This document shows positions 28,541-52,169 of a stretch of DNA of 64,000 nt, in pieces. Location of the stretch: NCBI GenBank assembly GCA_903889915.1, contig CAISZK010000072.1:1585-65584 (forward strand). The letters are read 5' to 3'. Within the stretch, counting starts at the first letter, position 1, and every line of letters begins with the position of its first letter. Source of the stretch: an uncultured Bacteroidota bacterium (GTDB taxonomy: Bacteria; Bacteroidota; Bacteroidia; Bacteroidales; CG2-30-32-10). Made by a program: the position numbers and the translations under genes. The notes beneath the pieces were generated by a model that had not been told where the DNA came from, ran no database searches, and saw only the letters and a program-made list of their open reading frames with translations.

Positions 28541-28749
28541 AAGTTGTTTTGGATTAATTTCTTCTCTACCTTTATTTTTACATTTCAGTAATAGACCGGC
28601 ATGATGAAAAAACTATTGATAAGATTTGCTCTGGCTTTTTGTGCATAGTAATTTATCTCTGTTCAACAACCACTGAGAAAAGTAATATCAATGATTCATC
28701 ACTGGTGATAATTTCCATCAATATCAGAACTTTCTAACGAATAATTAAG

Positions 28750-28823
28750 TGACCCCGGAGGGATTCAAACCCCCGACTTTCAGAACCGGAATCTGATGTT
28801 CTATTCAGCTGAACTACGGGGCC
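28750..28823 (-). tRNA. tRNA-Arg (anticodon CCG)
   Basis: The reverse complement folds as a cloverleaf. Acceptor GGCCCCG/CGGGGTC, D arm GTTC/GAAC, anticodon stem TCAGA/TCTGA with loop TTCCGGT, T arm GGGGG-TTTGAAT-CCCTC. 74 nt, with no encoded CCA. Confidence 0.85.
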
Positions 28824-39530: not shown

Positions 39531-39633
39531 TTTTCGTCAATCATGATAGATAAATTCTAATGATTGGTGATTTTCGTCAATCATAATAGATAAAATTGTA
39601 ATTTTGCATAAAATTTCAATTATGATAGATGAT
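39531..39633 (+). repeat. ~40-bp direct triplication of the ATPase gene 5' end
   Basis: ttttcgtcaatcatgatagataaa (39531-39554) and ttttcgtcaatcataatagataaa (39571-39594) are followed by tttcaattatgatagat, which overlaps the ATG at 39622. Confidence 0.75.
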
Positions 39634-40851
39634 ATTAGAAAAGCAAGACCCTATATTGAACGTCCGCTTTACATAGATCCAATCAGACCTTTTATTGGAA
39701 AGGAAATTATTAAAGTAATAACGGGACAGCGGCGTGTGGGGAAGAGTTATATTCTATTTCAACTGATGGATTTGATTGAAAAAAAAGTCCCCAAATCCAA
39801 CATTATCTATATTAATAAAGAATTCCGACCTCATTCGTTTATCAAAAACGATGCTGATTTGTACAATTATGTGCAATCAGTATTAAATAAAAAAAAGAAG
39901 AACTTTCTGTTTATTGATGAGATTCAGGAAATACAAAATTTCGAGATAGCTTTGAGAAGCCTCTTATTAGAAAACACATGCGACATTTTCTGTACAGGTA
40001 GCAATGCCAAGATGCTTTCCGGTGAGTTGTCAACTCATCTTGGAGGCAGATACATGGAGTTTCAGGTTCATAGTCTTGTGTATGTTGAATTTTTGAAATT
40101 TTTCAATTTAGAAAATACTACTGAGTCCCTATATAAATATCTTACGTTTGGTGGAATGCCTTATTTAAATGTGATAGGGCTTGAAGAAAACGCCGTTTAC
40201 GAATACCTGCGAAATGTTTATTCAACAATATTATTGAAAGATGTGGTTGCACGGGAAAACCTTCGCAGTGTGTCATTTCTTGAAAACCTTGTTGAATACC
40301 TTGCCGATAATGTGGGTAACCTATTCTCTTCTTCAAATATCAGCAAATATTTAAAATCGCAACAAATCGAGATGACCACCCAATCGGTAATAAATTATTT
40401 AAAACCCCTGTTAAATGCTTATTTTATTCACAAGGTTTCCCGTTCGGATCTGAAAGGATTGAAAATATTTGAGATTGGTGAAAAATATTATTTTGAAGAC
40501 CTTGGTCTGAGAAATTCCTTTCATGGTTTTGACAGGCTTAAAGACATAAATAAACTGATGGAAAATGCAGTGTATTTATTTTTGTTAAGTCACAATTTCG
40601 AAGTAACAATAGGTAAAATTGGGGCAACAGAAATTGATTTTGTAGCTGAAAAAAAAGGAAAAAAAATCTACGTTCAGGTCACTTACATATTAGTTGATGA
40701 AACTACTATTGAGAGAGAGTTTGGAAATCTTTTAAAGATTGAAGATAATTATCCAAAGTATGTTGTGTCTATGGATGAAAATTATCTCCACTCCAATTAT
40801 CAGGGAATAGAACAAGTTCATTTACGCAAATTCCTTTGTATGGATTTATAG
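39622..40851 (+). CDS. AAA-type ATPase with DUF4143-like C-terminal domain
   Basis: Walker A GQRRVGKSY and Walker B FLFIDEIQ. The ~410-aa architecture is typical of the AAA_14/DUF4143 family. Confidence 0.7.
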   Translation: MIDDIRKARPYIERPLYIDPIRPFIGKEIIKVITGQRRVGKSYILFQLMDLIEKKVPKSNIIYINKEFRPHSFIKNDADLYNYVQSVLNKKKKNFLFIDEIQEIQNFEIALRSLLLENTCDIFCTGSNAKMLSGELSTHLGGRYMEFQVHSLVYVEFLKFFNLENTTESLYKYLTFGGMPYLNVIGLEENAVYEYLRNVYSTILLKDVVARENLRSVSFLENLVEYLADNVGNLFSSSNISKYLKSQQIEMTTQSVINYLKPLLNAYFIHKVSRSDLKGLKIFEIGEKYYFEDLGLRNSFHGFDRLKDINKLMENAVYLFLLSHNFEVTIGKIGATEIDFVAEKKGKKIYVQVTYILVDETTIEREFGNLLKIEDNYPKYVVSMDENYLHSNYQGIEQVHLRKFLCMDL

Positions 40852-41618: not shown

Positions 41619-41951
41619 TCAGGCAATGGCAGGAAGTTCAAATGTTGTTGCCAGAATTTCAAAGATATTCTTTTTGTTACCCAGTTTATCTGTGTACTGT
41701 CTGTTGACCAATTTTCCGGTCAGTGACAACTGGATACCCTTCTTCGCAATTTCTGCTGCTTTTTCAGCAGTTTTGTTCCACATCACAATGTTGTGCCATG
41801 TTGTGTTCTTTACCCACTCGCCTGCTTTGCTCTTGTAATCTTCACTTGTAGCAAGCGAAAATCTCAGCATTTTGCTGCCATTGCTTAATGTTTTTACTTC
41901 AGGTTCTACACCAATGTACCCACTCAATTCCACTTTGTTTGTTGTTTTCAT
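41619..41951 (-). CDS. ssb: single-stranded DNA-binding protein (short, no acidic tail)
   Basis: 110-aa OB-fold pattern (VELSGYIGVEPEVKTLSNGSKMLRFSLAT ... WHNIVMW ... LTGKLVNRQY). It ends ...ELPAIA. Confidence 0.75.
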   Translation of the reverse strand: MKTTNKVELSGYIGVEPEVKTLSNGSKMLRFSLATSEDYKSKAGEWVKNTTWHNIVMWNKTAEKAAEIAKKGIQLSLTGKLVNRQYTDKLGNKKNIFEILATTFELPAIA

Positions 41952-42291
41952 AACTCTTTTTTTAATGATACTTTAAAGTTTTTTAAAATTATGATACAAA
42001 GGAACACTCTCTGCGGAAGCTGATTCGGTTATTAAGCGCTTACATTCGTTTAATATCCGTTTGTAGTCGTTTGTTGTCGGATAGTTACTTTCATTAAACT
42101 GAATTACAAGGAAATAATTGGAGTAGAGTTTTTAAGAAAATTGTTGAATAATTTTTCAATTCCTGGCTAAAATGCTATTTTTTATCCAACCTTTCATTTT
42201 ATCATTGTGATATCAGGAGTTGAAAGCAGGATGGAAATGGAAAAGAAAAATAGAAATGTAATAACTTTAATATTTAATAATGCTATTGCAA

Positions 42292-45276
42292 TTATTTTTC
42301 TGCAGCTATTTGTAACTCATTACTATCAGCAACATACTTTTTAACCGATGCCTCATTTAATTCATCTGTCAATAAATTAAAAAACCTACTGACGAGATAA
42401 TTGGCCAATCCTTTATCCTTTGAAAGCTTGTTCATGAATTTAATAGGAGGTTCAGCATTCTTCAATAAAGCTTTATCAATACTCTCTCTCAATTTAATTC
42501 TTTTAACCTCTTCAATATTATTGGCTCGGAGACTTGCCATCAAAGACATGTCTTGTTTAAGTGAGTTATACATTTCTTTTACTACTTTATCATCCTCTCC
42601 CAAATCAATGGCATATTTATCATTGATTTCCTTAACGATTACTTTTAGGACTTCTTTAGGGTCCTGACGCGGACCATACCCGCCTCCCTGTTTGTTCTCG
42701 ATAACAGCATCTTCCGGGCTAAGAATAATACTTCCGTTTTCTTCTTCCTGAATTTTGAATTTGTCCATGTCAACCATTTGAGTAACCTCCAATGGCAGGG
42801 TTTCCTTTTCATAAGGAAGGTATTTGAAAAGTAGCTTGGTGAACAAATAAAACTTCTCAAGGTCTGTATCAATAAATGTAATGATCTGCGAAATGAAGGA
42901 ATACTGACGAACATATTTGTTAACATTCTTTCTGAATTTGTCCTTATCATCAGGAGAAAGAATTAAATATTTTTCGTCAACAATCTTTTTAAAGAAGGAT
43001 GAAAGCACCTCTGATTTTACCTTCTTGCGAACAAACATTTCAATAAAGTAATCCACCTCTTCCTTTGTAAATACATCAGCTTTCTCAATTTCATATTTTA
43101 AATTGTATAGCTTCTGCTTGTCTGTTGCTTTATCAAGAATGGTGCTTTGATAATAATTTTGAAAATCGCTTTGAATATCTTCCTGTTTGTTTACAAAATC
43201 TATGATAAAAGTATCCTGCTTTCCTTTTGCTGTTCTGTTAATACGGCTAAGAGTTTGAACAGTGGCTACGCCGCCCAGAGCTTTATCAACATACATTGTG
43301 TGTAACAGAGGCTGGTCAAATCCTGTCTGGAATTTATTTGCTACGATCAAAATTTTATACCCGGGTTTTTTAAATTCTTCTGCTATATCTTTTACTTTGG
43401 GGCCATTCATATTGCCTTCAGTATATTTTTCGCCTTCAAGTTCAACAGTACCGGAAAAAGCCACCAATGTTTGAATATTCCATCCCTGTACTTTAATGAT
43501 CTTATCAAATGCTTGTTTGTAAAGTACGGCATGTGCCCTTGAACAAGTAACTAACATTGCTTTTGCCTTACCACTAATTTTATGAATAGTCTTCTCCATA
43601 AAATGATTTAGCATGATATGGCTTTTGGATGCAATAGAAAAAGGATGTTTGTTTACCTCCTTTAAAAGTAATCTTTTTGCTTTTAGTTTTTCAAATGCTT
43701 TATTGTCTTCGGCATTTTCATTTTCTATTAATTCGAAATAAGAGCTTTTTGTAATGTAATTATCCAAAACATTTAAAATAAATCCTTCATCAATCGCCTG
43801 CCGCATCGTATATTCATGGAAAGCACGAAAATTTGCTTTTTGAGAAATATCCGGGATGCCAAACAATTCTAAGGTTTTAGGTTTTGGAGTTGCAGTAAAA
43901 GCAAAGAAAGATAAATGCGCCAATTTCTGGCGGCTTGCCATTATTTTCTCTAATTGTGCTTCAACGGTATCTTTAGGTTCTTTGTTTTCATCGTCCTGTG
44001 AGATTATTTTCTTTAATGCCTCGTCTGTAGTAAGGCTCAATTTTAAATCTTTTACATTTTCACCGCTTTGGCTACTGTGAGCTTCATCAACTATTATTGC
44101 AAAACGTTTTCCATTTAGTTTGGCAACTTCACCGATATAGCCAAATTTCTGAAGCGTACTGATGATGATCTTATCACCTTCAATCAATGCCTGCAATAAT
44201 TGTTTGCTTCCTTTTTTAATACTTTTTACCGTACCATTAATTTTCTCAAATTGTTTGATCTGCTTTTGCAATTGCTTATCTAAAACTATCTTGTCGGTAA
44301 TTACAATGATGCTGTCAAATATAGGCTCCTGATTCTGTCCAAATAAATTGGCAAGTTGGTGGGCAAGCCAGGCAATGGTTTTGCTCTTGCCGCTTCCGGC
44401 GCTATGCTGAATAAGGTAATTATGCCCTGTACCGTCTTTTTTAACCTGAGCTAATAATTTACGGACACAGTCTCTCTGATGATAACGAGGAAAAACAGTG
44501 CTTATCTCCTTGGTCTTTTCATCCTCTTCATAGAAAATGTAATTGTTCAGCATTTCCAGTAAACTATCAGCCTGCAGTATTTCTTCCCATAAATAGCTGC
44601 TTGCAAATTTATCAGGTATAACAGGGTTATGTGTATCTCTGTTAAATGGAAGAAAACGGGTGTTGCCGTTTTCCAATTTTGTTGTCATCAATACTGCATT
44701 ATTATCAACAGCAAAATGCACCAAACAGTTTTTCAAAAACGGATCTTTGCTATCACGTCGTTTACTGTATTGTTCAACAGCATGAGTTAGATTTTGTCCT
44801 GTAAATTCATTTTTTAATTCTAAGGTAATTATTGGGATGCCATTAATTGCAATTACTAAATCCAAACTGTTATCCGGAAATTGGCTGCTATAATGCACTT
44901 GCCTTATAATAGAGAATCTGTTTGCTTCATAATTCTTTAAATGTTCAGGGTTCAAACCAGATGACGGTTTGAATGAAATCAATTTAATGCTTGCACCCTG
45001 CAATACAAAACCTTCGCGTAACAAAGTAAGCACACCTCTTTTATCACGAAGCTTGGAAAATTCATTGGCAACTGCTTCCATAGTGTTTGAAGGAAATTGT
45101 TTTTCTAATCTCCGCCATGTATCGGGTTGAGTATTGTGTATAAATTGCTCCAGCAATTCTTTATCCAAAATATACTCTAAATCGAAGTCTGTACTTTTAC
45201 GAAGCGTAAATAATTTACTTTCCTTTAGTAAATCAAATACAGTGTCTTCAAAATTTACTTCTCTTGTTTCACTCAT
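42292..45276 (-). CDS. hsdR: Type I restriction enzyme R subunit
   Basis: 994 aa. N-terminal PD-(D/E)xK-like DLVIAINGIPIITLELK, helicase motif I HSAGSGKS, and DEAH box IVDEAHSSQ. Confidence 0.9.
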   Translation of the reverse strand: MSETREVNFEDTVFDLLKESKLFTLRKSTDFDLEYILDKELLEQFIHNTQPDTWRRLEKQFPSNTMEAVANEFSKLRDKRGVLTLLREGFVLQGASIKLISFKPSSGLNPEHLKNYEANRFSIIRQVHYSSQFPDNSLDLVIAINGIPIITLELKNEFTGQNLTHAVEQYSKRRDSKDPFLKNCLVHFAVDNNAVLMTTKLENGNTRFLPFNRDTHNPVIPDKFASSYLWEEILQADSLLEMLNNYIFYEEDEKTKEISTVFPRYHQRDCVRKLLAQVKKDGTGHNYLIQHSAGSGKSKTIAWLAHQLANLFGQNQEPIFDSIIVITDKIVLDKQLQKQIKQFEKINGTVKSIKKGSKQLLQALIEGDKIIISTLQKFGYIGEVAKLNGKRFAIIVDEAHSSQSGENVKDLKLSLTTDEALKKIISQDDENKEPKDTVEAQLEKIMASRQKLAHLSFFAFTATPKPKTLELFGIPDISQKANFRAFHEYTMRQAIDEGFILNVLDNYITKSSYFELIENENAEDNKAFEKLKAKRLLLKEVNKHPFSIASKSHIMLNHFMEKTIHKISGKAKAMLVTCSRAHAVLYKQAFDKIIKVQGWNIQTLVAFSGTVELEGEKYTEGNMNGPKVKDIAEEFKKPGYKILIVANKFQTGFDQPLLHTMYVDKALGGVATVQTLSRINRTAKGKQDTFIIDFVNKQEDIQSDFQNYYQSTILDKATDKQKLYNLKYEIEKADVFTKEEVDYFIEMFVRKKVKSEVLSSFFKKIVDEKYLILSPDDKDKFRKNVNKYVRQYSFISQIITFIDTDLEKFYLFTKLLFKYLPYEKETLPLEVTQMVDMDKFKIQEEENGSIILSPEDAVIENKQGGGYGPRQDPKEVLKVIVKEINDKYAIDLGEDDKVVKEMYNSLKQDMSLMASLRANNIEEVKRIKLRESIDKALLKNAEPPIKFMNKLSKDKGLANYLVSRFFNLLTDELNEASVKKYVADSNELQIAAEK

Positions 45277-45287
45277 AAAAAATCCTT

Positions 45288-47135
45288 TTAATTAAAATAC
45301 TCAACAGACCAAAGCTTTTCACAAATGCGCTGAAATAATTTTAAACGTTCTCCAATATCTTTACACTTAAAATGTGGGTGAGCCTTGAATTCCAAATCCC
45401 GTATAACTTCTGAATTTAAAAAATTAGGATTTTTTGAATAAAACAAAGGATGCAGAGTTTGTGCATAAATGTTTTCTTTCAAATAGTGTTCAAGTTTATC
45501 TTCATATATATCGCTACTAAAGGATTGATTTGTTCCATTCGGCAATAGCAAAAGCGCACCAATTGAATTCCTCCAATCCTGAAATTCATTTTCCTGTTCA
45601 AATTCATCTCTATGCTCCTCAAATTTATTTGCCCAAATGTGTTCTATTTCAAATTGTTTTCCATTAGGGTGATGATAGAAAACATAATTAGTACCTTTCC
45701 CTGCAAGATTATCAATATAGCTGCTCGTACGAGAAAGTAGATGCTTTACAAATTTTCCATTTTGTCCATTTAAACAAAAATTCCAGGTACCATCCCAATC
45801 CACATCCATTTTTTCAATTTCAACAGATAAATTTTTCCCAAGCAAAGCAGTATCATTGTTCCGAATAAGTTTAATCACATTGAACATGCTATATTTAATG
45901 GAGGTTTGACCAAACTTTCGAGAATTAATTGCTCGTTTTACAGCAAAGGTTTCAATATAACGAGAAACAAAATCAATTTTCTTTTGAATTGTTTCATTAT
46001 CGTCAGCAAAATTAATGGGAGCTATTAATAATGGATTCTGTAAAGATTCTGCAATTCCCCATCGGGTTATATAATTTGCATGAGGCATGTTTGAATTAAA
46101 ATCTATTTCTGCATCCCAAATTTTCAAATACCATTTAACATAAAATGGAAATTGATTTTTGAAGAAATTATAAAAATCATCAGATGATTTTAGTTTAAAT
46201 AAAGTTCTATAATTATCCTTAAACCAATTATGAAAACGCGAACCAATCAATTCAAAATCCTTATCCTCTGAATCTACTTTTCCTGGACGGATTGAAACTG
46301 CATACTTACCCCTAAACCAAGCCTGGAAGAAGCCCTGATCTGCATTTTCATCATAATCATGAAGCTTTTGTATTTCGGTTTTCCAAAGGTCATTGATTTC
46401 ATTTCGTTGCTTTTTATCTGTAATCTTTGATAATACGAATCCCTTTAACATTTCTGTTGGGGTAAGATTTAATCCACGATCATTCATCGTTTCAAAAATC
46501 ATATAGGCATTATCATCTGAATACGCAGTAATTTCAACTAATACAACATTTTCAACGAACCAGTCAATAAAAAATGGCAATGCGTTTTGAGTTAATTCCT
46601 CAGGAAAGCATTGTTCAATATCATTATAACGTTCAACCATATTTTTAACGGTTTCATCATCATCATCCTTTATGAAATATTCCCCATTTTCAAACAATGC
46701 TTTTAAGCAAGGCTCTCTCATTTCATCACTCATGTTAAAAGATTTCTCACCGTACTTTTCAGAGAATACAAGCTCACTTATTGACACTTTTTGTTCGCTG
46801 TCTTTCTGCAAATGGTTGAGGTATATTAAAAGCAAAGTGATAGAAGTAATGCGTTGCTGCCCATCAATAATAGACTTTTTACCATTGACAGGATTAATAC
46901 TAAACACCACAGGTCCTAAATAATAATTTTGGTAATTGGCAACATCTGAACGTTTATTCTCTTCTTTATATGATTTATTAAATGTAGAAGTTAAATCTTC
47001 TACCATAAGTTTAATATGCTTTTCCTGCCAGCGAAATTCCCGTTGGAAATAATCAATTGTAAACTTCTGATCCTTTAACAATGCGCTAATGCTGGTGTCT
47101 TTGGCTTCAATTTTGTTTTTTAGTTTCTGACTCAT
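45288..47135 (-). CDS. DUF262 + DUF1524 protein (GmrSD-family Type IV restriction-like)
   Basis: N-terminal IIDGQQRITS (DGQQR motif of DUF262/ParB-like NTPase). C-terminal FEIEHIWA His-Me-finger-like motif (DUF1524). Confidence 0.7.
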   Translation of the reverse strand: MSQKLKNKIEAKDTSISALLKDQKFTIDYFQREFRWQEKHIKLMVEDLTSTFNKSYKEENKRSDVANYQNYYLGPVVFSINPVNGKKSIIDGQQRITSITLLLIYLNHLQKDSEQKVSISELVFSEKYGEKSFNMSDEMREPCLKALFENGEYFIKDDDDETVKNMVERYNDIEQCFPEELTQNALPFFIDWFVENVVLVEITAYSDDNAYMIFETMNDRGLNLTPTEMLKGFVLSKITDKKQRNEINDLWKTEIQKLHDYDENADQGFFQAWFRGKYAVSIRPGKVDSEDKDFELIGSRFHNWFKDNYRTLFKLKSSDDFYNFFKNQFPFYVKWYLKIWDAEIDFNSNMPHANYITRWGIAESLQNPLLIAPINFADDNETIQKKIDFVSRYIETFAVKRAINSRKFGQTSIKYSMFNVIKLIRNNDTALLGKNLSVEIEKMDVDWDGTWNFCLNGQNGKFVKHLLSRTSSYIDNLAGKGTNYVFYHHPNGKQFEIEHIWANKFEEHRDEFEQENEFQDWRNSIGALLLLPNGTNQSFSSDIYEDKLEHYLKENIYAQTLHPLFYSKNPNFLNSEVIRDLEFKAHPHFKCKDIGERLKLFQRICEKLWSVEYFN

Positions 47136-47146
47136 TTTATAGTATA

Positions 47147-47527
47147 TTAAAGTTTTTCTAATGATAATTTCGTGTTCGTTAATACTTTTTCAAAATCTTC
47201 ATTGACTTGTGTTGCTTTATGAAAAGACGAGAATATTTCGATAATTGAAGGATAAAGCATATCGGTTTCCATTACACGAATCTGAATGTGTTTATAAAGT
47301 TTTCTGCTTTCACTAAATAATGCTGACTGCATCTCGTAAATATCATCAGTTGCTTTTTTAATGTTTCCAAAATTATATCCAAGAGCCATTATATCCGTAT
47401 AGACATTATCCAAATAACCTTCCTTTCCAAGATCAGGGTTTGCTCGGTATGCCTCTTCTTTGACAATTTGCTCTAATTTTTCAATAAAGCATTTTTTAAT
47501 TTCAGCTAATAGCTCGTTATAATTCAT
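47147..47527 (-). CDS. hypothetical protein (126 aa) embedded in the Type I R-M operon
   Basis: ATG start, same strand, with 11-bp and 32-bp gaps to its neighbours. Predicted helical, with no recognisable motif. Confidence 0.5.
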   Translation of the reverse strand: MNYNELLAEIKKCFIEKLEQIVKEEAYRANPDLGKEGYLDNVYTDIMALGYNFGNIKKATDDIYEMQSALFSESRKLYKHIQIRVMETDMLYPSIIEIFSSFHKATQVNEDFEKVLTNTKLSLEKL

Positions 47528-47559
47528 GGTTTGTTTTTTAAATTATTTTTTATCCTATT

Positions 47560-48936
47560 TTAGTTTTCTGCGGCAATTGACAAGGGTCGCTCTTCGCTGC
47601 CATATTGATTCTCCTTCTTTTTAGCTTCCCATCCCCTCACATCTATTTTCCCCGTTACTGCCTGACTTATTAATGATGTCCGGTATTCTTGCATTAAATC
47701 TATTTGCTTTTGGTATTTGGTGATTAATGTATCAATGGTTGAGGTTTCTTTATTTATATAATCTATGATTGCCTGTTGCTCATCAATTGGAGGAATCGTA
47801 AATTCAAATATTTCAAAAACATTTTGGTATAAATGCAAAATTGTTGTTCCTGTTGTCGTAATATTTATGAATTGTGTGAATACATTTGAATTTAAAATAA
47901 AATATAAGAAATCTGATTTGTATTTCCGCAAAGGTCGAACAACAAAAACGCCACTATTTAAAGATGCAAAACCTTTCAGACCTTTAACAACTGCTGTTTT
48001 GCCAATTGTTCCGTCTTTCGTTATAAGCAAATCATCTTCTCTCAATTGAATATGTTTGTCTTGCAAATACCTTTCTTTTGTAATTTGGTAGCAAGTTTTC
48101 CAATTGACAGTTCCATTGATAAAATCTGTTCCTGTAACTAAAAATGCATATTCATTCTCGAAAAATTCATCTGACCTTAAACCATCCCAACCTATTCGTC
48201 CTTTAATATAGGAGGTGTGTTTAATTTTCCAAATCTCCCAATGTTCCGGTATATCCCCAATCCACCCAATTCCGCTCGCCTTTAACTTTACATTTTGGTC
48301 AATGCCTTTTGTTACCGCTTTATTGATAATCCCTGCCTTCTGCTCCTTCAACAATTCAATCTGCTTTTGACGGCTTGCAATAAACCTATCTATCTGCCCT
48401 GTTTTGTAATCAAGAAAACGAACGATGGAGTGTTGTTCGCGGAGGGAGGGGTATGGAATGAATATTCTTGATTGAGATGTTTTATTAATTATTGCAACAA
48501 CATTTGTCGTTGAATTCTTCCATTGCTCATCTTCACTCGCAATAAAAGAATATACTCCAAATTTTGGATTTATTTTTTCAGGATTAAAAGTAAAGGAATT
48601 TATCTGCTGATTTGTTATACAGTTAGAACCAGCAATACCAAATTTACCAATAGTGCCTATAGCACAAGTTAACAGAGAAAATTCCTTTATCAGTCTTGAG
48701 TTTTCAAGTGCTTTTTTTGTAATTTTTTCTTTACTATCAATAATTGGAGTAAACCCATTTAATTCGTCCGGTTTAACGAATAAAATATTTCCCCCTTCGT
48801 AATTTGAATTATCTACTTTGGGAGGTGTTGAGCCCGTTTCAATATTTGCTACAAATTTAAATTTAATTGCATCCCATTCTGATGGAATTTCTTTTACCCA
48901 ATCCCTTCTCTCTTTATATGCTGGATACTTTTTCAT
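47560..48936 (-). CDS. hsdS: Type I R-M specificity subunit
   Basis: Two target-recognition halves are separated by conserved coiled regions (LREQHSIVRFLDYKTGQIDRFI... and IDEQQAIIDYINKETSTIDTLI...). ATGA overlap with hsdM. Confidence 0.85.
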   Translation of the reverse strand: MKKYPAYKERRDWVKEIPSEWDAIKFKFVANIETGSTPPKVDNSNYEGGNILFVKPDELNGFTPIIDSKEKITKKALENSRLIKEFSLLTCAIGTIGKFGIAGSNCITNQQINSFTFNPEKINPKFGVYSFIASEDEQWKNSTTNVVAIINKTSQSRIFIPYPSLREQHSIVRFLDYKTGQIDRFIASRQKQIELLKEQKAGIINKAVTKGIDQNVKLKASGIGWIGDIPEHWEIWKIKHTSYIKGRIGWDGLRSDEFFENEYAFLVTGTDFINGTVNWKTCYQITKERYLQDKHIQLREDDLLITKDGTIGKTAVVKGLKGFASLNSGVFVVRPLRKYKSDFLYFILNSNVFTQFINITTTGTTILHLYQNVFEIFEFTIPPIDEQQAIIDYINKETSTIDTLITKYQKQIDLMQEYRTSLISQAVTGKIDVRGWEAKKKENQYGSEERPLSIAAEN

Positions 48937-51080
48937 TCAACAACTTCTTTAATCTCATTCAGCAATTCTTCCGTTTGTTCTTCTAATGCTTCAATATCAT
49001 TCATAATTTTTTTCAAATCACGCAGTGGTTTGTATTCATAAAAGAATTTAGTAAAAGGTATTTCGTAACCAATTTTATCTTTTTCCCTGTCCATCCAGGC
49101 ATCGGGTGCAAAGGGCAATACTTCGCGTTCAAAATATTCGGTAATATCTTCTTTCCATTTAATATTTTCGCTATCGCGCAAGTCGCTATCGAACAAAGGT
49201 TTTTCTTTCCAATCACATATTCTTCCTTTTTGTACCGGCACATCAAAGGGGTCGGCAAAAACCACTTCGGCTTCTTCGTTTTTTTCGCCCAATATATCAC
49301 GATACATTTTCAGCAAAGCTTTGCCCGGTTGGTTTCCAAAAGCTTTTTCAAAAGCGGCAAAGAAATTTGCATCATCCATTTCTCTCGTATGCTGCGCCTG
49401 TCGAATGGTTTCTATTGCTTTCAATATTTTTTCCTGCATGGCTTTGCCTTTAGCAATATCAGCTTCGGCTGCCGCTTTGTCCTTCTTTTTGCTGGTGGCA
49501 AACTCTTTAAACTTGCTATGCTCTTTTAATGCTTCAATTTTTTCGTCTGTTATTTCATAAGCCAAACGCAGTGGCCTTTCTACTATTACCTTGGTATATT
49601 TAAAATCTGTAACATCGTAAATCTTGCTCACCTCTATTGCCCGCTTAATCTTTTCGCCCGGCTTATGAGGATTTTCCTCTTCCACTTCTATGCTGTGATT
49701 TTGGAAGGCTTTATACATGTCGGTTATCAGGCTTATGCCATCTTCGCTTATTTCATATTGCTTTTTACCGAGGGATTTTATTTTCTTCGTAAAACTTGAA
49801 TGAACAGCATTTATCAACTGAACTTTTCCTTTTCTATTGTCAGGTTTTTTATTGTTCAATATCCAAATGTACGATCCAATGCCAGTGCCATAGAACAGGT
49901 CCTTTGGCATGGCGACAATGCAATCCAATAAATCGTTGGGGTCGTCCATAATCCAACCGCGAATATTGCTCCATCCACCGCCGGCATCACCATTAAACAA
50001 GGGGGAACCATTAAACACTATGCCTATGGTACTGCCAGTTGGATTCATTTTACTGATCATGTGTTGCAGAAATAAAAACGAACCATCGCTTACATCGGGA
50101 GTCCCTGCACCAAAGCGACCACTAAATCCATCTTCCTCTGATTCATTTTCCACAAACTCACGGATGTTTTTCCAGTCATCACCAAAGGGAGGGTTGGTAA
50201 GCATGTAGTTAAAGGTTCTTCCTTTCAGTTGGTCTTTGGTGATGGTGTTTCCATGCTTGATGTTTTCGGCATCTTCACCTTTCATCAGTAGGTCAGATTT
50301 GGCAATAGCATAAGTTTTTTCGTTTATTTCCTGTCCATAAACCCAAACATCAAGATTTTTATTAACGCTTTGCTGCAAATAATCTTTTGCCGTTGTAAGC
50401 ATACCGCCAGTTCCGCAACATGGATCATAAATATTAATACCTGCTCCGGCTTTTTGTAGCTTCTCCGTTTCGTTCGCAAACACAAGGTTTACCATCAGGC
50501 GCACAATTTCTCTTGGAGTAAAATATTGCCCTGCCTTTTCGTTGCTTGTTTCTTTCGATTTACGAATAAGGATTTCGAAAATGGTTCCCATGTCGTGATT
50601 ACTCACTTTGTCGGGATGCAGATCAATTTTAGGAGAAACAAATTCTTTGGTAACTATCAGCAAAAGATCTTTGCGCAATAGCGTTTCGTAAATAGGTGAT
50701 AAACCCTTTTCAGGTCCGCCGCTAAAATTGTAAAGTATTTCTTTGATGTTATCGCTAAAGCCTTTGAGATATGCATCAAAGTTTACCCCAATGTTGTCAA
50801 TATCTTTGGTAAGCCCCGACAGAGTATAATCAGACGTGTTATAAAAATTCTTGCCCGATGCTTTCTTTAAAAGTTGGTCAAGCACACCCGGTGTTGCCTT
50901 ATCTTTGAATTTCTCAAATTCCTTTACTACTTTTTCGTGAGATCCCTCCAATTCGCAGTCAATGCGCCTCAATAAAGTAAAAGGAAGAATAACATCTTCA
51001 TAATCCTTCTCGGCATATTCGTCCCTGATGTGTTCTTTGATTCCCCAAATAAATTCGGATATCTCGTTGTGGTTTTCCAT
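48933..51080 (-). CDS. hsdM: Type I R-M N6-adenine DNA methyltransferase subunit (long form)
   Basis: Motif I YDPCCGTGGML, motif IV LTNPPFGDDW, plus an HsdM N-terminal-like region and a long C-terminal extension (715 aa). Confidence 0.9.
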   Translation of the reverse strand: MENHNEISEFIWGIKEHIRDEYAEKDYEDVILPFTLLRRIDCELEGSHEKVVKEFEKFKDKATPGVLDQLLKKASGKNFYNTSDYTLSGLTKDIDNIGVNFDAYLKGFSDNIKEILYNFSGGPEKGLSPIYETLLRKDLLLIVTKEFVSPKIDLHPDKVSNHDMGTIFEILIRKSKETSNEKAGQYFTPREIVRLMVNLVFANETEKLQKAGAGINIYDPCCGTGGMLTTAKDYLQQSVNKNLDVWVYGQEINEKTYAIAKSDLLMKGEDAENIKHGNTITKDQLKGRTFNYMLTNPPFGDDWKNIREFVENESEEDGFSGRFGAGTPDVSDGSFLFLQHMISKMNPTGSTIGIVFNGSPLFNGDAGGGWSNIRGWIMDDPNDLLDCIVAMPKDLFYGTGIGSYIWILNNKKPDNRKGKVQLINAVHSSFTKKIKSLGKKQYEISEDGISLITDMYKAFQNHSIEVEEENPHKPGEKIKRAIEVSKIYDVTDFKYTKVIVERPLRLAYEITDEKIEALKEHSKFKEFATSKKKDKAAAEADIAKGKAMQEKILKAIETIRQAQHTREMDDANFFAAFEKAFGNQPGKALLKMYRDILGEKNEEAEVVFADPFDVPVQKGRICDWKEKPLFDSDLRDSENIKWKEDITEYFEREVLPFAPDAWMDREKDKIGYEIPFTKFFYEYKPLRDLKKIMNDIEALEEQTEELLNEIKEVVE

Positions 51081-51192
51081 TTATGTTTGATTAAGTATTA
51101 AAGTGGTAAATAAGGTATTTGTTATTTAAAATCCAAAAGTAAATAAAAATGGAATCAAACTAAATTTAAAATGGAATCTTAAGAATGTCATT

Positions 51193-51597: not shown

Positions 51598-51875
51598 GCT
51601 GAAACGGGTTATTTGAGGATAAAATTAATGTCAGGTTTTCCTCAAATGAAACAAGGCGTAAAAGTATAACAATTTATTTTGTCAGCAAATAAAAATCTCA
51701 TCTTCCTTTTATTTATCGGCTAGAAAAATAGTCATTCATTCCACTTTTACAGACTCCAACTTCCATCACTTTTATTCATCGTCCCTAACATTCATTTTTT
51801 AGTATTTTTAGTGTTTCGCTTGTCAAAATAATAGCTTTTCAACGCCCGGAATCACCCTCTATTTTATCCATAAAA

Positions 51876-52169
51876 GTTGCAACTTTTTCCGAAGTTGCGT
51901 CAACTTTTTCCGAACTAGTTGCAGCAAGTTCCAAAAAAGTTGCAACTTTTTCCAAAGAAGTTGCAACTTTGTTCAAATTAGTTGCAGCAACTTCCGAAGA
52001 AGTGTCAACTTTTTCCGAAGAAGTTGCAACTTTGTTCAAATTAGTTGCAGCAAGTTCCGAAAAAGTGTCAACTTTTTCCGAAGAAGTTGCAACTTTTTCC
52101 AAACTAGTTGCAACTTTATTGGAAAAAGTCGCAACTAGTTCCAATAAAGTTGCGACTTTTTCCGAAGTA
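51876..52169. repeat. 21-bp-period array C (14 units) built on the palindrome AAAGTTGCAACTTT
   Basis: Units start at 51876, 51894 and 51918, then every 21 bp to 52149. Six units carry perfect GTTGCAAC. A 63-bp higher-order repeat runs 51960-52022 and 52023-52085. Confidence 0.9.

Follow-up and report, generated by a model that had tools for sequence, protein, structure and literature searches.

The locus described here occupies positions 42292-51080 of a 64,000-nucleotide stretch of contig CAISZK010000072.1 (assembly GCA_903889915.1) from an uncultured Bacteroidota bacterium; we refer to the whole stretch as the window. On its minus strand, one packed cluster of five genes holds a complete Type I restriction-modification (R-M) gene set with intact motifs, together with an intact single-chain gene of the GmrSD family and a small gene whose product we call p126 (Table 1). 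The listing of open reading frames (ORFs) gives the order hsdM, hsdS, a 126-amino-acid (aa) ORF, a 615-aa ORF and hsdR, and the junction sequences place the hsdS start and the hsdM stop in a shared ATGA, followed by gaps of 32, 11 and 11 bp in gene order. This reproduces exactly the order, strand, ATGA coupling and 11-32 bp spacing given in the original prediction, which had been made from the letters of the same DNA.

Table 1. Coordinates of the five-gene cluster and of other features in the window.
Feature	Position	Strand	Description and basis
hsdR	42292..45276	-	Type I restriction/translocase subunit, 994 aa; Pfam, NCBIfam, PADLOC, motifs
GmrSD-family gene	45288..47135	-	Single-chain protein, 615 aa; N-terminal DUF262/ParB-like NTPase-sensor domain, helical linker, C-terminal DUF1524 His-Me-finger nuclease
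p126	47147..47527	-	126-aa all-helical protein of a small uncharacterised family; recurs in restriction loci
hsdS	47560..48936	-	Type I specificity subunit, 458 aa, two target-recognition domains; Pfam, PADLOC
hsdM	48933..51080	-	Type I N6-methyladenine (m6A) DNA methyltransferase subunit, 715 aa; Pfam, PADLOC, motifs
Candidate Bacteroidota-type -7 promoter element	51134..51141	-	TACTTTTG, matches TAnnTTTG, 61 nt 5' of the hsdM start; pattern match only
AAA_14 + DUF4143 ATPase gene	39604-40851	+	415 aa; PADLOC candidate defence family PDC-S01, 3.2e-140; 1.4 kb from hsdR
Short SSB gene	41619-41951	-	110 aa; Pfam SSB 2.9e-25; 340 bp downstream of hsdR; terminator-like hairpin after it
Tandem array	51872-52167	both	About 12.7 copies of a 21-bp unit, periods 42 and 63 bp; palindrome AAGTTGCAACTT
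tRNA-Arg (CCG)	28749-28823		

Co-transcription of all five genes is a reasonable inference from the short gaps, the ATGA overlap, a scan for terminators and the position of a single promoter motif. The gaps leave too little room for a terminator, and the scan found no terminator-like site in them. When the 200 nt 5' of each of the five starts were scanned for the Bacteroidota-type pattern TAnnTTTG, the sole match was TACTTTTG ahead of hsdM, and we infer that it may act as the promoter. A generic sigma-70 scan returned fewer matches than shuffled sequence and is uninformative for a Bacteroidota-like genome. The single-operon reading put forward earlier thus gains support from the tight spacing, the terminator scan and the lone motif before hsdM.

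The Type I subunits are readily recognised. HsdM matches Pfam N6_Mtase (4.9e-61) and HsdM_N (2.7e-16) and, over its full length, the PADLOC MTase_I model PDLC03029 (8.5e-241), with motif I (DPCCGTG at residue 219) and motif IV (NPPF at 296) intact. Its residues ~465-715, about 250 in all, extend the C-terminus and match no Pfam domain; because the single model PDLC03029 covers the entire protein, this extension is a trait of a recognised long subfamily. HsdS matches Methylase_S in two stretches (1.4e-24) and PADLOC Specificity_I over its full length (1e-102). HsdR matches HSDR_N (3.6e-14), SWI2_SNF2 (4.9e-24), ResIII and a T1R_D3-like domain in Pfam, TIGR00348 (1.9e-64) and PADLOC REase_I (3.4e-38), and retains D..ELK at residue 135, GSGKS at 294 and DEAH at 397. 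The NCBIfam models for hsdM (78.9 bits against a trusted cutoff of 242.75) and hsdR (218.4 against 284.55) score below cutoff. The set thus comprises a gamma-class HsdM, an adjoining HsdS with two target-recognition domains and an HsdR that unites a PD-(D/E)xK nuclease with a superfamily 2 motor, and by analogy its predicted activity is sequence-specific m6A methylation of the host together with ATP-dependent cleavage of unmethylated DNA.

The 615-aa protein has the full architecture of a single-chain GmrSD enzyme. Both Pfam halves score above their gathering cutoffs, GmrSD_N (PF03235) with 4.7e-32 and 112 bits against 33, and GmrSD_C (PF07510) with 2.2e-8 and 34.5 bits against 23; the earlier assignment to DUF262 plus DUF1524 is thereby confirmed. 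The two motifs on which that assignment had leaned are where they should be, with DGQQR at residue 91 (IIDGQQRITS) and EIEHIW at 496 (FEIEHIWA), and they are accompanied by FQRE at 30, FETMNDRG at 214 and NGTNQS. The protein therefore carries a DUF262 domain with QR, DGQQR and FxxxN, and a DUF1524 domain with [DE]H and the helix Asn. Its best PADLOC match is HEC-06 (8e-34), with the SspE models far weaker (7e-13). The closest solved structure is DndI (PDB 9jfl), reached by sequence (E 2.4e-8, 16% identity) and by fold (E 1.3e-7, TM-score 0.49), the latter from an AlphaFold2 (AF2) model used for this match only and not for active-site geometry.

The clade to which this protein belongs is large, with 6,616 database proteins at E<=1e-20. 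Each of the best 120 clusters shares 73-81% identity with it, and they come from Bacteroidota, Bacillota and Gammaproteobacteria, with Paludibacter, Niabella, Nafulsella, Flavobacterium, Methylovulum, Sporosarcina, Clostridium and Syntrophomonadaceae among the names; because such identity spans several phyla, frequent horizontal transfer seems indicated, and the clade is strongly conserved. Across 119 close homologues the nuclease region FEIEHIWA ... WRNSIGAL ... LPxGTNQS is conserved, and the catalytic residues H499 (in E498-H499) and N536 are invariant in the alignments. Residues 521-539 (WRNSIGAL...LPNGTNQS) place an Ala at the structural Asn position of GNL. We considered decay of the nuclease domain and rejected it, since the same Ala is kept in all 119 homologues and is thus a trait of the clade; GAL marks a distinct sub-clade of DUF1524 nucleases.

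Members of the clade also occur in other settings. In Methylovulum psychrotolerans (CP022129.1) the layout is hsdS-GmrSD-hsdR with overlapping genes and no p126; elsewhere it is GmrSD-339aa-Fic-hsdR, and in Sporosarcina the gene stands entirely alone. More distant homologues match 21 plasmid records, and the two inspected ones stand alone. Because clade members are found in the Type I slot with or without p126, and also by themselves, the enzyme is an autonomous module, frequently though not invariably placed between hsdS and hsdR.

p126 is a real, conserved gene. Searches of Pfam, PADLOC, NCBIfam and PHROGs returned nothing for its product, and hidden Markov model (HMM) scans of longer or fused relatives returned no significant additional domain. 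AF2 predicts a confident seven-helix bundle (predicted local distance difference test (pLDDT) 93.3, predicted TM-score 0.87), for which Foldseek gives no significant match (best E 1.1 in PDB and 2.2 in BFVD). The family comprises nine 90%-identity clusters, 44-100% identical, among 5.8 billion proteins, and 58 members, 26 of them with E<1e-10, when 1.84 billion representatives were searched exhaustively with a profile; aligned members have in common a conserved core, YTDIMALGYN-GD..KA..DIYE, and also FSxFH..TQ. The pI is 5.1 and the net charge about -5. A search with a 9-sequence alignment found four p126 loci among 185,579 species genomes, all in Bacteroidota, and the JGI metagenome collection holds 20.

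Several origins for p126 were tried and rejected. A split-off fragment of HsdS, HsdM, HsdR or the GmrSD linker was rejected (every hhalign probability <0.5%), and the only matches of a profile search of PDB sequences, designed coiled coils, are spurious. A HEPN-like RNase was dismissed on the grounds that there is no Rx4-6H motif, that the conserved His103 is lost in distant members and that R84 is not conserved. A phage or plasmid origin was likewise set aside, as homologues are absent from IMG/VR, from the INPHARED phages (50,697 records) and from the PLSDB plasmids (72,556 records). Variants of the protein exist: a Bacteroidales metagenome-assembled genome (JAXLTR010000011.1, locus L023, 8001-9134) encodes a 377-aa protein of three tandem, diverging p126 domains (profile E 2e-46, 7e-13 and 7e-8) that fills the same slot, between hsdS and a DUF262 protein, and others have two copies (P0065) or C-terminal extensions (P0053, P0048, P0061).

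The genomic contexts of the family tell more. We counted 22 informative, non-redundant loci, and in 16-17 of them a restriction-type gene (hsdS/hsdR, DUF262, McrBC or PLD nuclease) lies within two genes of p126. Writing M, S and R for the Type I genes and a number for the p126 homologue, the window locus reads M-S-126-GmrSD-R, and related Type I loci read M-S-126-GmrSD-RhuM-R (L001), M-S-126-GmrSD-339aa-Fic-R (L004), M-S-126-DUF2971-GmrSD-Sacsin (L030), M-S-129-DEAD helicase-R (L033), S-126-R (L018), 126-R (L034) and S-125-Sacsin-domain protein (L010), while the triple-domain locus L023 reads M-S-[three tandem p126 domains]-DUF262 protein-R, its DUF262 protein being 20% identical to the window enzyme. 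Without Type I genes, the family appears as 126-McrB-McrC with a 4-bp overlap (L009), as DUF262/DUF7834-GmrSD-(121 aa)-125, a TgvAB-like pair (L006, L032), and as GmrSD-128-ParA (L019). In distant members, the p126 homologue precedes a DUF262 gene (L039, L040/41), follows the gene of a DUF262/DUF7834 protein (L046) or has a PLD nuclease gene two genes downstream of it (L037).

Two of these arrangements deserve description in their own right. In L009 (662-5074) a p126 homologue 66% identical to ours is followed, with a 4-bp overlap, by a 918-aa McrB-like GTPase (DUF8425/DUF8426/AAA_5/McrB_lid) and then by McrC; this McrBC is a Type IV system of a mechanistic class wholly different from GmrSD. 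In L006 (4198-8378) and L032 (451-4009), a DUF262+DUF7834 protein precedes a DUF262+DUF1524 protein and the p126 homologue comes after, with no Type I genes nearby; L006 is surrounded by toxin-antitoxin and WYL-regulator genes.

Within Type I loci, p126 keeps company with its backbone. Relative to the window, p126 identities of 59-67% accompany 82-87% for HsdM and 81-83% for HsdR; an identity of 41% accompanies 45% for HsdM and 42% for HsdR, and one of 37% accompanies 35% for HsdR. The divergence of p126 thus parallels that of the HsdM/HsdR backbone while the next downstream gene gets exchanged. In one Type I lineage p126 is therefore a stable occupant of the first place in the hsdS-hsdR slot, and it has an independent affinity for DUF262 loci.

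The interpretation that we favour, and that we consider probable as a whole, is that the locus works as one operon in which a complete Type I R-M enzyme is accompanied by two genes nested between hsdS and hsdR. HsdM2-HsdS would methylate the recognition sites of the host, and HsdR, once joined to it (HsdR2M2S), would translocate and cut unmethylated DNA. The DUF262 domain of the 615-aa enzyme would bind and hydrolyse nucleoside triphosphate and sense the state of the DNA, by analogy with Eco94GmrSD, BrxU, TgvAB and HEC-06, and this sensing would license the C-terminal His-Me-finger nuclease to cut foreign DNA. Its target would be hypermodified phage DNA that escapes the Type I enzyme, such that the two systems, being co-expressed, would cover each other's blind spots; hypermodified phage DNA as the substrate class is, judging by relatives, somewhat better than an even guess. 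p126 would be a protein-binding accessory or regulator of the neighbouring nuclease or nucleases, one that the GmrSD enzyme does not need. This role for p126 is put forward at low confidence, as a tentative possibility. In a stronger version, which we regard as doubtful, p126 would found a new family of small helical restriction-nuclease accessory proteins, with a fold unlike solved structures, which bind and modulate an HsdR, GmrSD-type, McrBC or PLD-type neighbour; it might then act as a safety catch or an adaptor, or divert the anti-restriction proteins of phages as a decoy, and this would explain why p126 keeps the first slot after hsdS during the exchange of downstream defence cargo.

A number of points weigh against this interpretation. 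The substrate of a GmrSD enzyme is not predictable from sequence; DndI, the nearest solved relative, and also SspE target unmodified DNA, with host modification holding them back; and HEC-06 reportedly differs from BrxU in its defence profile (bioRxiv 10.1101/2024.01.29.577857). The AF2 model of the 615-aa protein is mediocre (pLDDT 70), with low confidence in the His-Me segment, and most GmrSD proteins, the more distant ones, carry the canonical GNL or GNY where this clade has GAL. On the side of p126, no homology, fusion partner or catalytic signature points to a specific role, and 5 of the 22 contexts have no restriction gene nearby (L026/L031, where a TrwB-type conjugative coupling protein is the neighbour, L025, L035, L038 and L043/44). 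The original prediction had it that the 615-aa protein attacks modified DNA; as stated, this goes beyond the evidence, as it was drawn from relatives and the closest solved one restricts unmodified DNA (PMC11662687). Its further suggestion, that the two enzymes together cover unmodified and hypermodified DNA, is reasonable but not new, having already been put forward for TgvAB and its Type I system (PMC11411939).

The opposite logic has to be weighed with some care. The 615-aa protein might be an SspE/DndI-type effector that cuts unmodified invader DNA and is switched off by a host mark, here the m6A laid down by HsdM-HsdS. DndI is the sole significant relative among solved structures, by sequence and by fold alike, it senses host phosphorothioate and restricts phage deficient in it (PMC11662687), and the GmrSD gene sits downstream of the modification module hsdM-hsdS. 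The identity to DndI is nevertheless only 16%, and the SspE models of PADLOC fall far behind HEC-06. Members of the clade at ~75% identity pair with HsdS proteins only 35-40% identical to that of the window, and the Sporosarcina member stands alone, without a methyltransferase neighbour; because the clade sits beside divergent HsdS or beside no methyltransferase, it is unlikely to read one particular host mark. In the window, no dnd or ssp gene was found among the 35 other ORFs of at least 130 aa (PADLOC, E<=1e-5), and a phosphorothioate-linked function was rejected on that ground. We judge an SspE/DndI-type effector to be quite unlikely and retain a Type IV-like enzyme directed at hypermodified DNA as the preferred reading of the 615-aa protein.

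For p126, the nearest alternative is that it forms an obligate two-protein system with the 615-aa enzyme, analogous to TgvA-TgvB. The two genes are 11 bp apart in the window, they stand together in at least four other Type I loci, and distant p126 relatives adjoin DUF262 proteins outside Type I loci (L006, L032, L019, L039, L040). Both also occur apart, and the specific partnership of the 126-aa and 615-aa proteins that had been envisaged is not borne out. The GmrSD clade counts more than 100 clusters at 73-81% identity against nine for p126 and is commoner by orders of magnitude; the enzyme does without p126 in Methylovulum and in Sporosarcina, and p126 does without GmrSD in hsdS-126-hsdR, 126-hsdR, hsdS-125-Sacsin and 126-McrBC. 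L023 keeps p126 though its GmrSD has been replaced by the DUF262 protein of 20% identity, and p126 itself, with no DUF262 domain in Pfam and an hhalign probability of 0.4% against GmrSD proteins, is no analogue of TgvA or of any TgvAB-type second protein. An obligate pair is thus very improbable, and its distribution largely refutes it. p126 could instead be a restriction modulator carried by mobile DNA (anti-restriction or alleviation) that damps the nuclease or nucleases while a recently acquired restriction cassette becomes established, or a hitch-hiking gene of a mobile element that has no part in what the operon does. The family is mildly acidic (median pI 5.0), some members lie beside a conjugative coupling protein (L026/L031) or ParA (L019/L020), the locus is richer in AT than the DNA on either side (31-34% against 40-44% GC), and the Type I backbone and the GmrSD clade are clearly horizontally mobile. 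Against this, the net charge of p126 is far from that of the DNA mimics Ocr or ArdA, and it resembles no solved anti-restriction protein in fold or sequence; with regard to ArdA, Ocr and KlcA/ArdB there is no Pfam or PHROG match and no Foldseek hit at E<1. The phage, plasmid and IMG/VR collections named above hold no homologue, and p126 occupies a stable same-strand operon position in step with HsdM and HsdR. We consider a modulator or passenger unlikely, and an accessory of the neighbouring nuclease remains our tentative preference for p126.

Judging by its surroundings, the locus belongs to a small defence island that was probably gained by horizontal transfer. GC content is 31-34% across 42000-49000 (hsdR, GmrSD, p126 and hsdS) as compared with 40-44% in much of the window, and this AT-rich composition is consistent with horizontal acquisition. 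The cluster lies between glyS and cell-surface genes, with neighbours encoding SprB/CHU_C-type proteins, and because the PDC-S01 ATPase is only 1.4 kb from hsdR we place the Type I locus in a small defence island by glyS. No integrase or tRNA gene adjoins it, the only tRNA gene of the window being the distant tRNA-Arg (Table 1). The short SSB looks like the mobile-element type and not a housekeeping one; the same gene also follows hsdR in L012 and L013. The contigs that carry an identical locus are all environmental; together with the SprB/CHU_C-type neighbours and the restriction of genome-borne p126 relatives to Bacteroidota, this fits a source organism within that phylum.

About 800 bp upstream of hsdM, beyond a 134-aa ORF, lies the tandem array, in which AAGTTGCAACTT has 11 exact matches against 0.04 expected by chance; another contig of the same organism (L012) has nine. 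The array could be a set of iterons or of regulator-binding sites, and the 101-aa and 82-aa ORFs that run over it are probably repeat artefacts. Among the 35 other ORFs of the window, one is weakly similar to the MADS methyltransferase model mad2 (5e-10) and another to ZorB/MotB (3e-7).

The window locus adds an example from uncultured Bacteroidota to a documented principle, namely that the hsdS-hsdR gap serves as a slot for extra defence genes, very often of GmrSD type. What it contributes beyond this is a highly conserved GmrSD clade (~75% identity across phyla) that moves in and out of the slot, and a rare, structurally unassigned p126 family that recurs beside several mechanistically different restriction nucleases. 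If p126 regulates or tethers nucleases, it would represent a new type of restriction accessory factor; otherwise it is one more ORF of a defence island.

A possible model for its role is EcoprrI-PrrC (hsdM-hsdS-prrC-hsdR), in which an extra gene between hsdS and hsdR encodes a product that interacts functionally with the Type I enzyme. PrrC itself, at ~400 aa, acts as an anticodon nuclease and includes an ABC-type ATPase domain; unlike it, p126 is a 126-aa helical protein without such domains. PrrC is mentioned in the survey of embedded defence genes by Payne et al. 2024 (bioRxiv 10.1101/2024.01.29.577857), which reports that GmrSD-like genes are frequently embedded in Type I R-M systems and that embedded genes are co-oriented with the host system in 96.7% of cases. 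In the analysis of Machnicka et al. 2015, no neighbours of GmrSD homologues were more enriched than Type I domains (Methylase_S, N6_Mtase, HsdM_N, HSDR_N), and the authors noted that RloF, which Campylobacter jejuni encodes between hsdS and hsdR, is a DUF262 protein (PMC4619093). The combination that the original prediction did not recognise has, as regards a DUF262/GmrSD gene between hsdS and hsdR, thus been documented (PMC4619093), tested (PMC11411939) and found to be frequent (bioRxiv 10.1101/2024.01.29.577857).

RloF and the other R-linked ORFs of C. jejuni (Miller et al. 2005, as cited in PMC4619093) resemble the window locus in having a DUF262 protein between hsdS and hsdR and variable cargo in the slot, which in the loci of the p126 family and the GmrSD clade includes RhuM, Fic, a Sacsin-domain protein, a DEAD helicase and DUF2971; they differ in phylum and Type I lineage, and no equivalent of p126 has been described there. 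DndI and SspE are DUF262 nickases that sense phosphorothioate (PMC11662687), and DndI shares with the 615-aa protein an NTPase-coupled DUF262 sensor with nuclease activity and a gene beside a DNA-modification module; their logic is the opposite one, in which host modification protects instead of triggering. HEC-06 and BrxU (HEC-05) are single-chain DUF262+DUF1524 enzymes that work alone and whose genes lie inside Hma, BREX and Type I systems (bioRxiv 10.1101/2024.01.29.577857; Picton et al. 2021, as cited there), and HEC-06 has been validated experimentally as active on its own (bioRxiv 10.1101/2024.01.29.577857). The PADLOC match of HEC-06 to the 615-aa protein covers mainly the N-terminal 260 residues, and the nuclease motifs differ, with EHIWA...GAL in the 615-aa protein, EHICP in HEC-06 and DHIYP in BrxU.

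The closest parallel in layout is TgvAB, a GmrSD-family Type IV system whose two genes lie within the Type I cluster of Vibrio cholerae VPI-2 (Blokesch laboratory, PMC11411939; PMC11014532). It restricts Tevenvirinae with glucosylated or arabinosylated hydroxymethylcytosine and is inactive when its DGQQR or His-Me motif is mutated (PMC11411939). In both loci GmrSD-family genes are nested in a Type I operon in the same orientation, the motifs required for TgvAB function are present in the 615-aa protein, and a division of labour between modified and unmodified targets has been proposed. TgvAB differs in consisting of two DUF262 proteins (TgvA with DUF262 only, TgvB with DUF262+DUF1524), distantly related in sequence to the window enzyme, whereas the window has one single-chain enzyme and the unrelated p126. 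A Type I operon with a nested GmrSD gene is therefore an arrangement already known, and p126 is the sole unfamiliar element in it.

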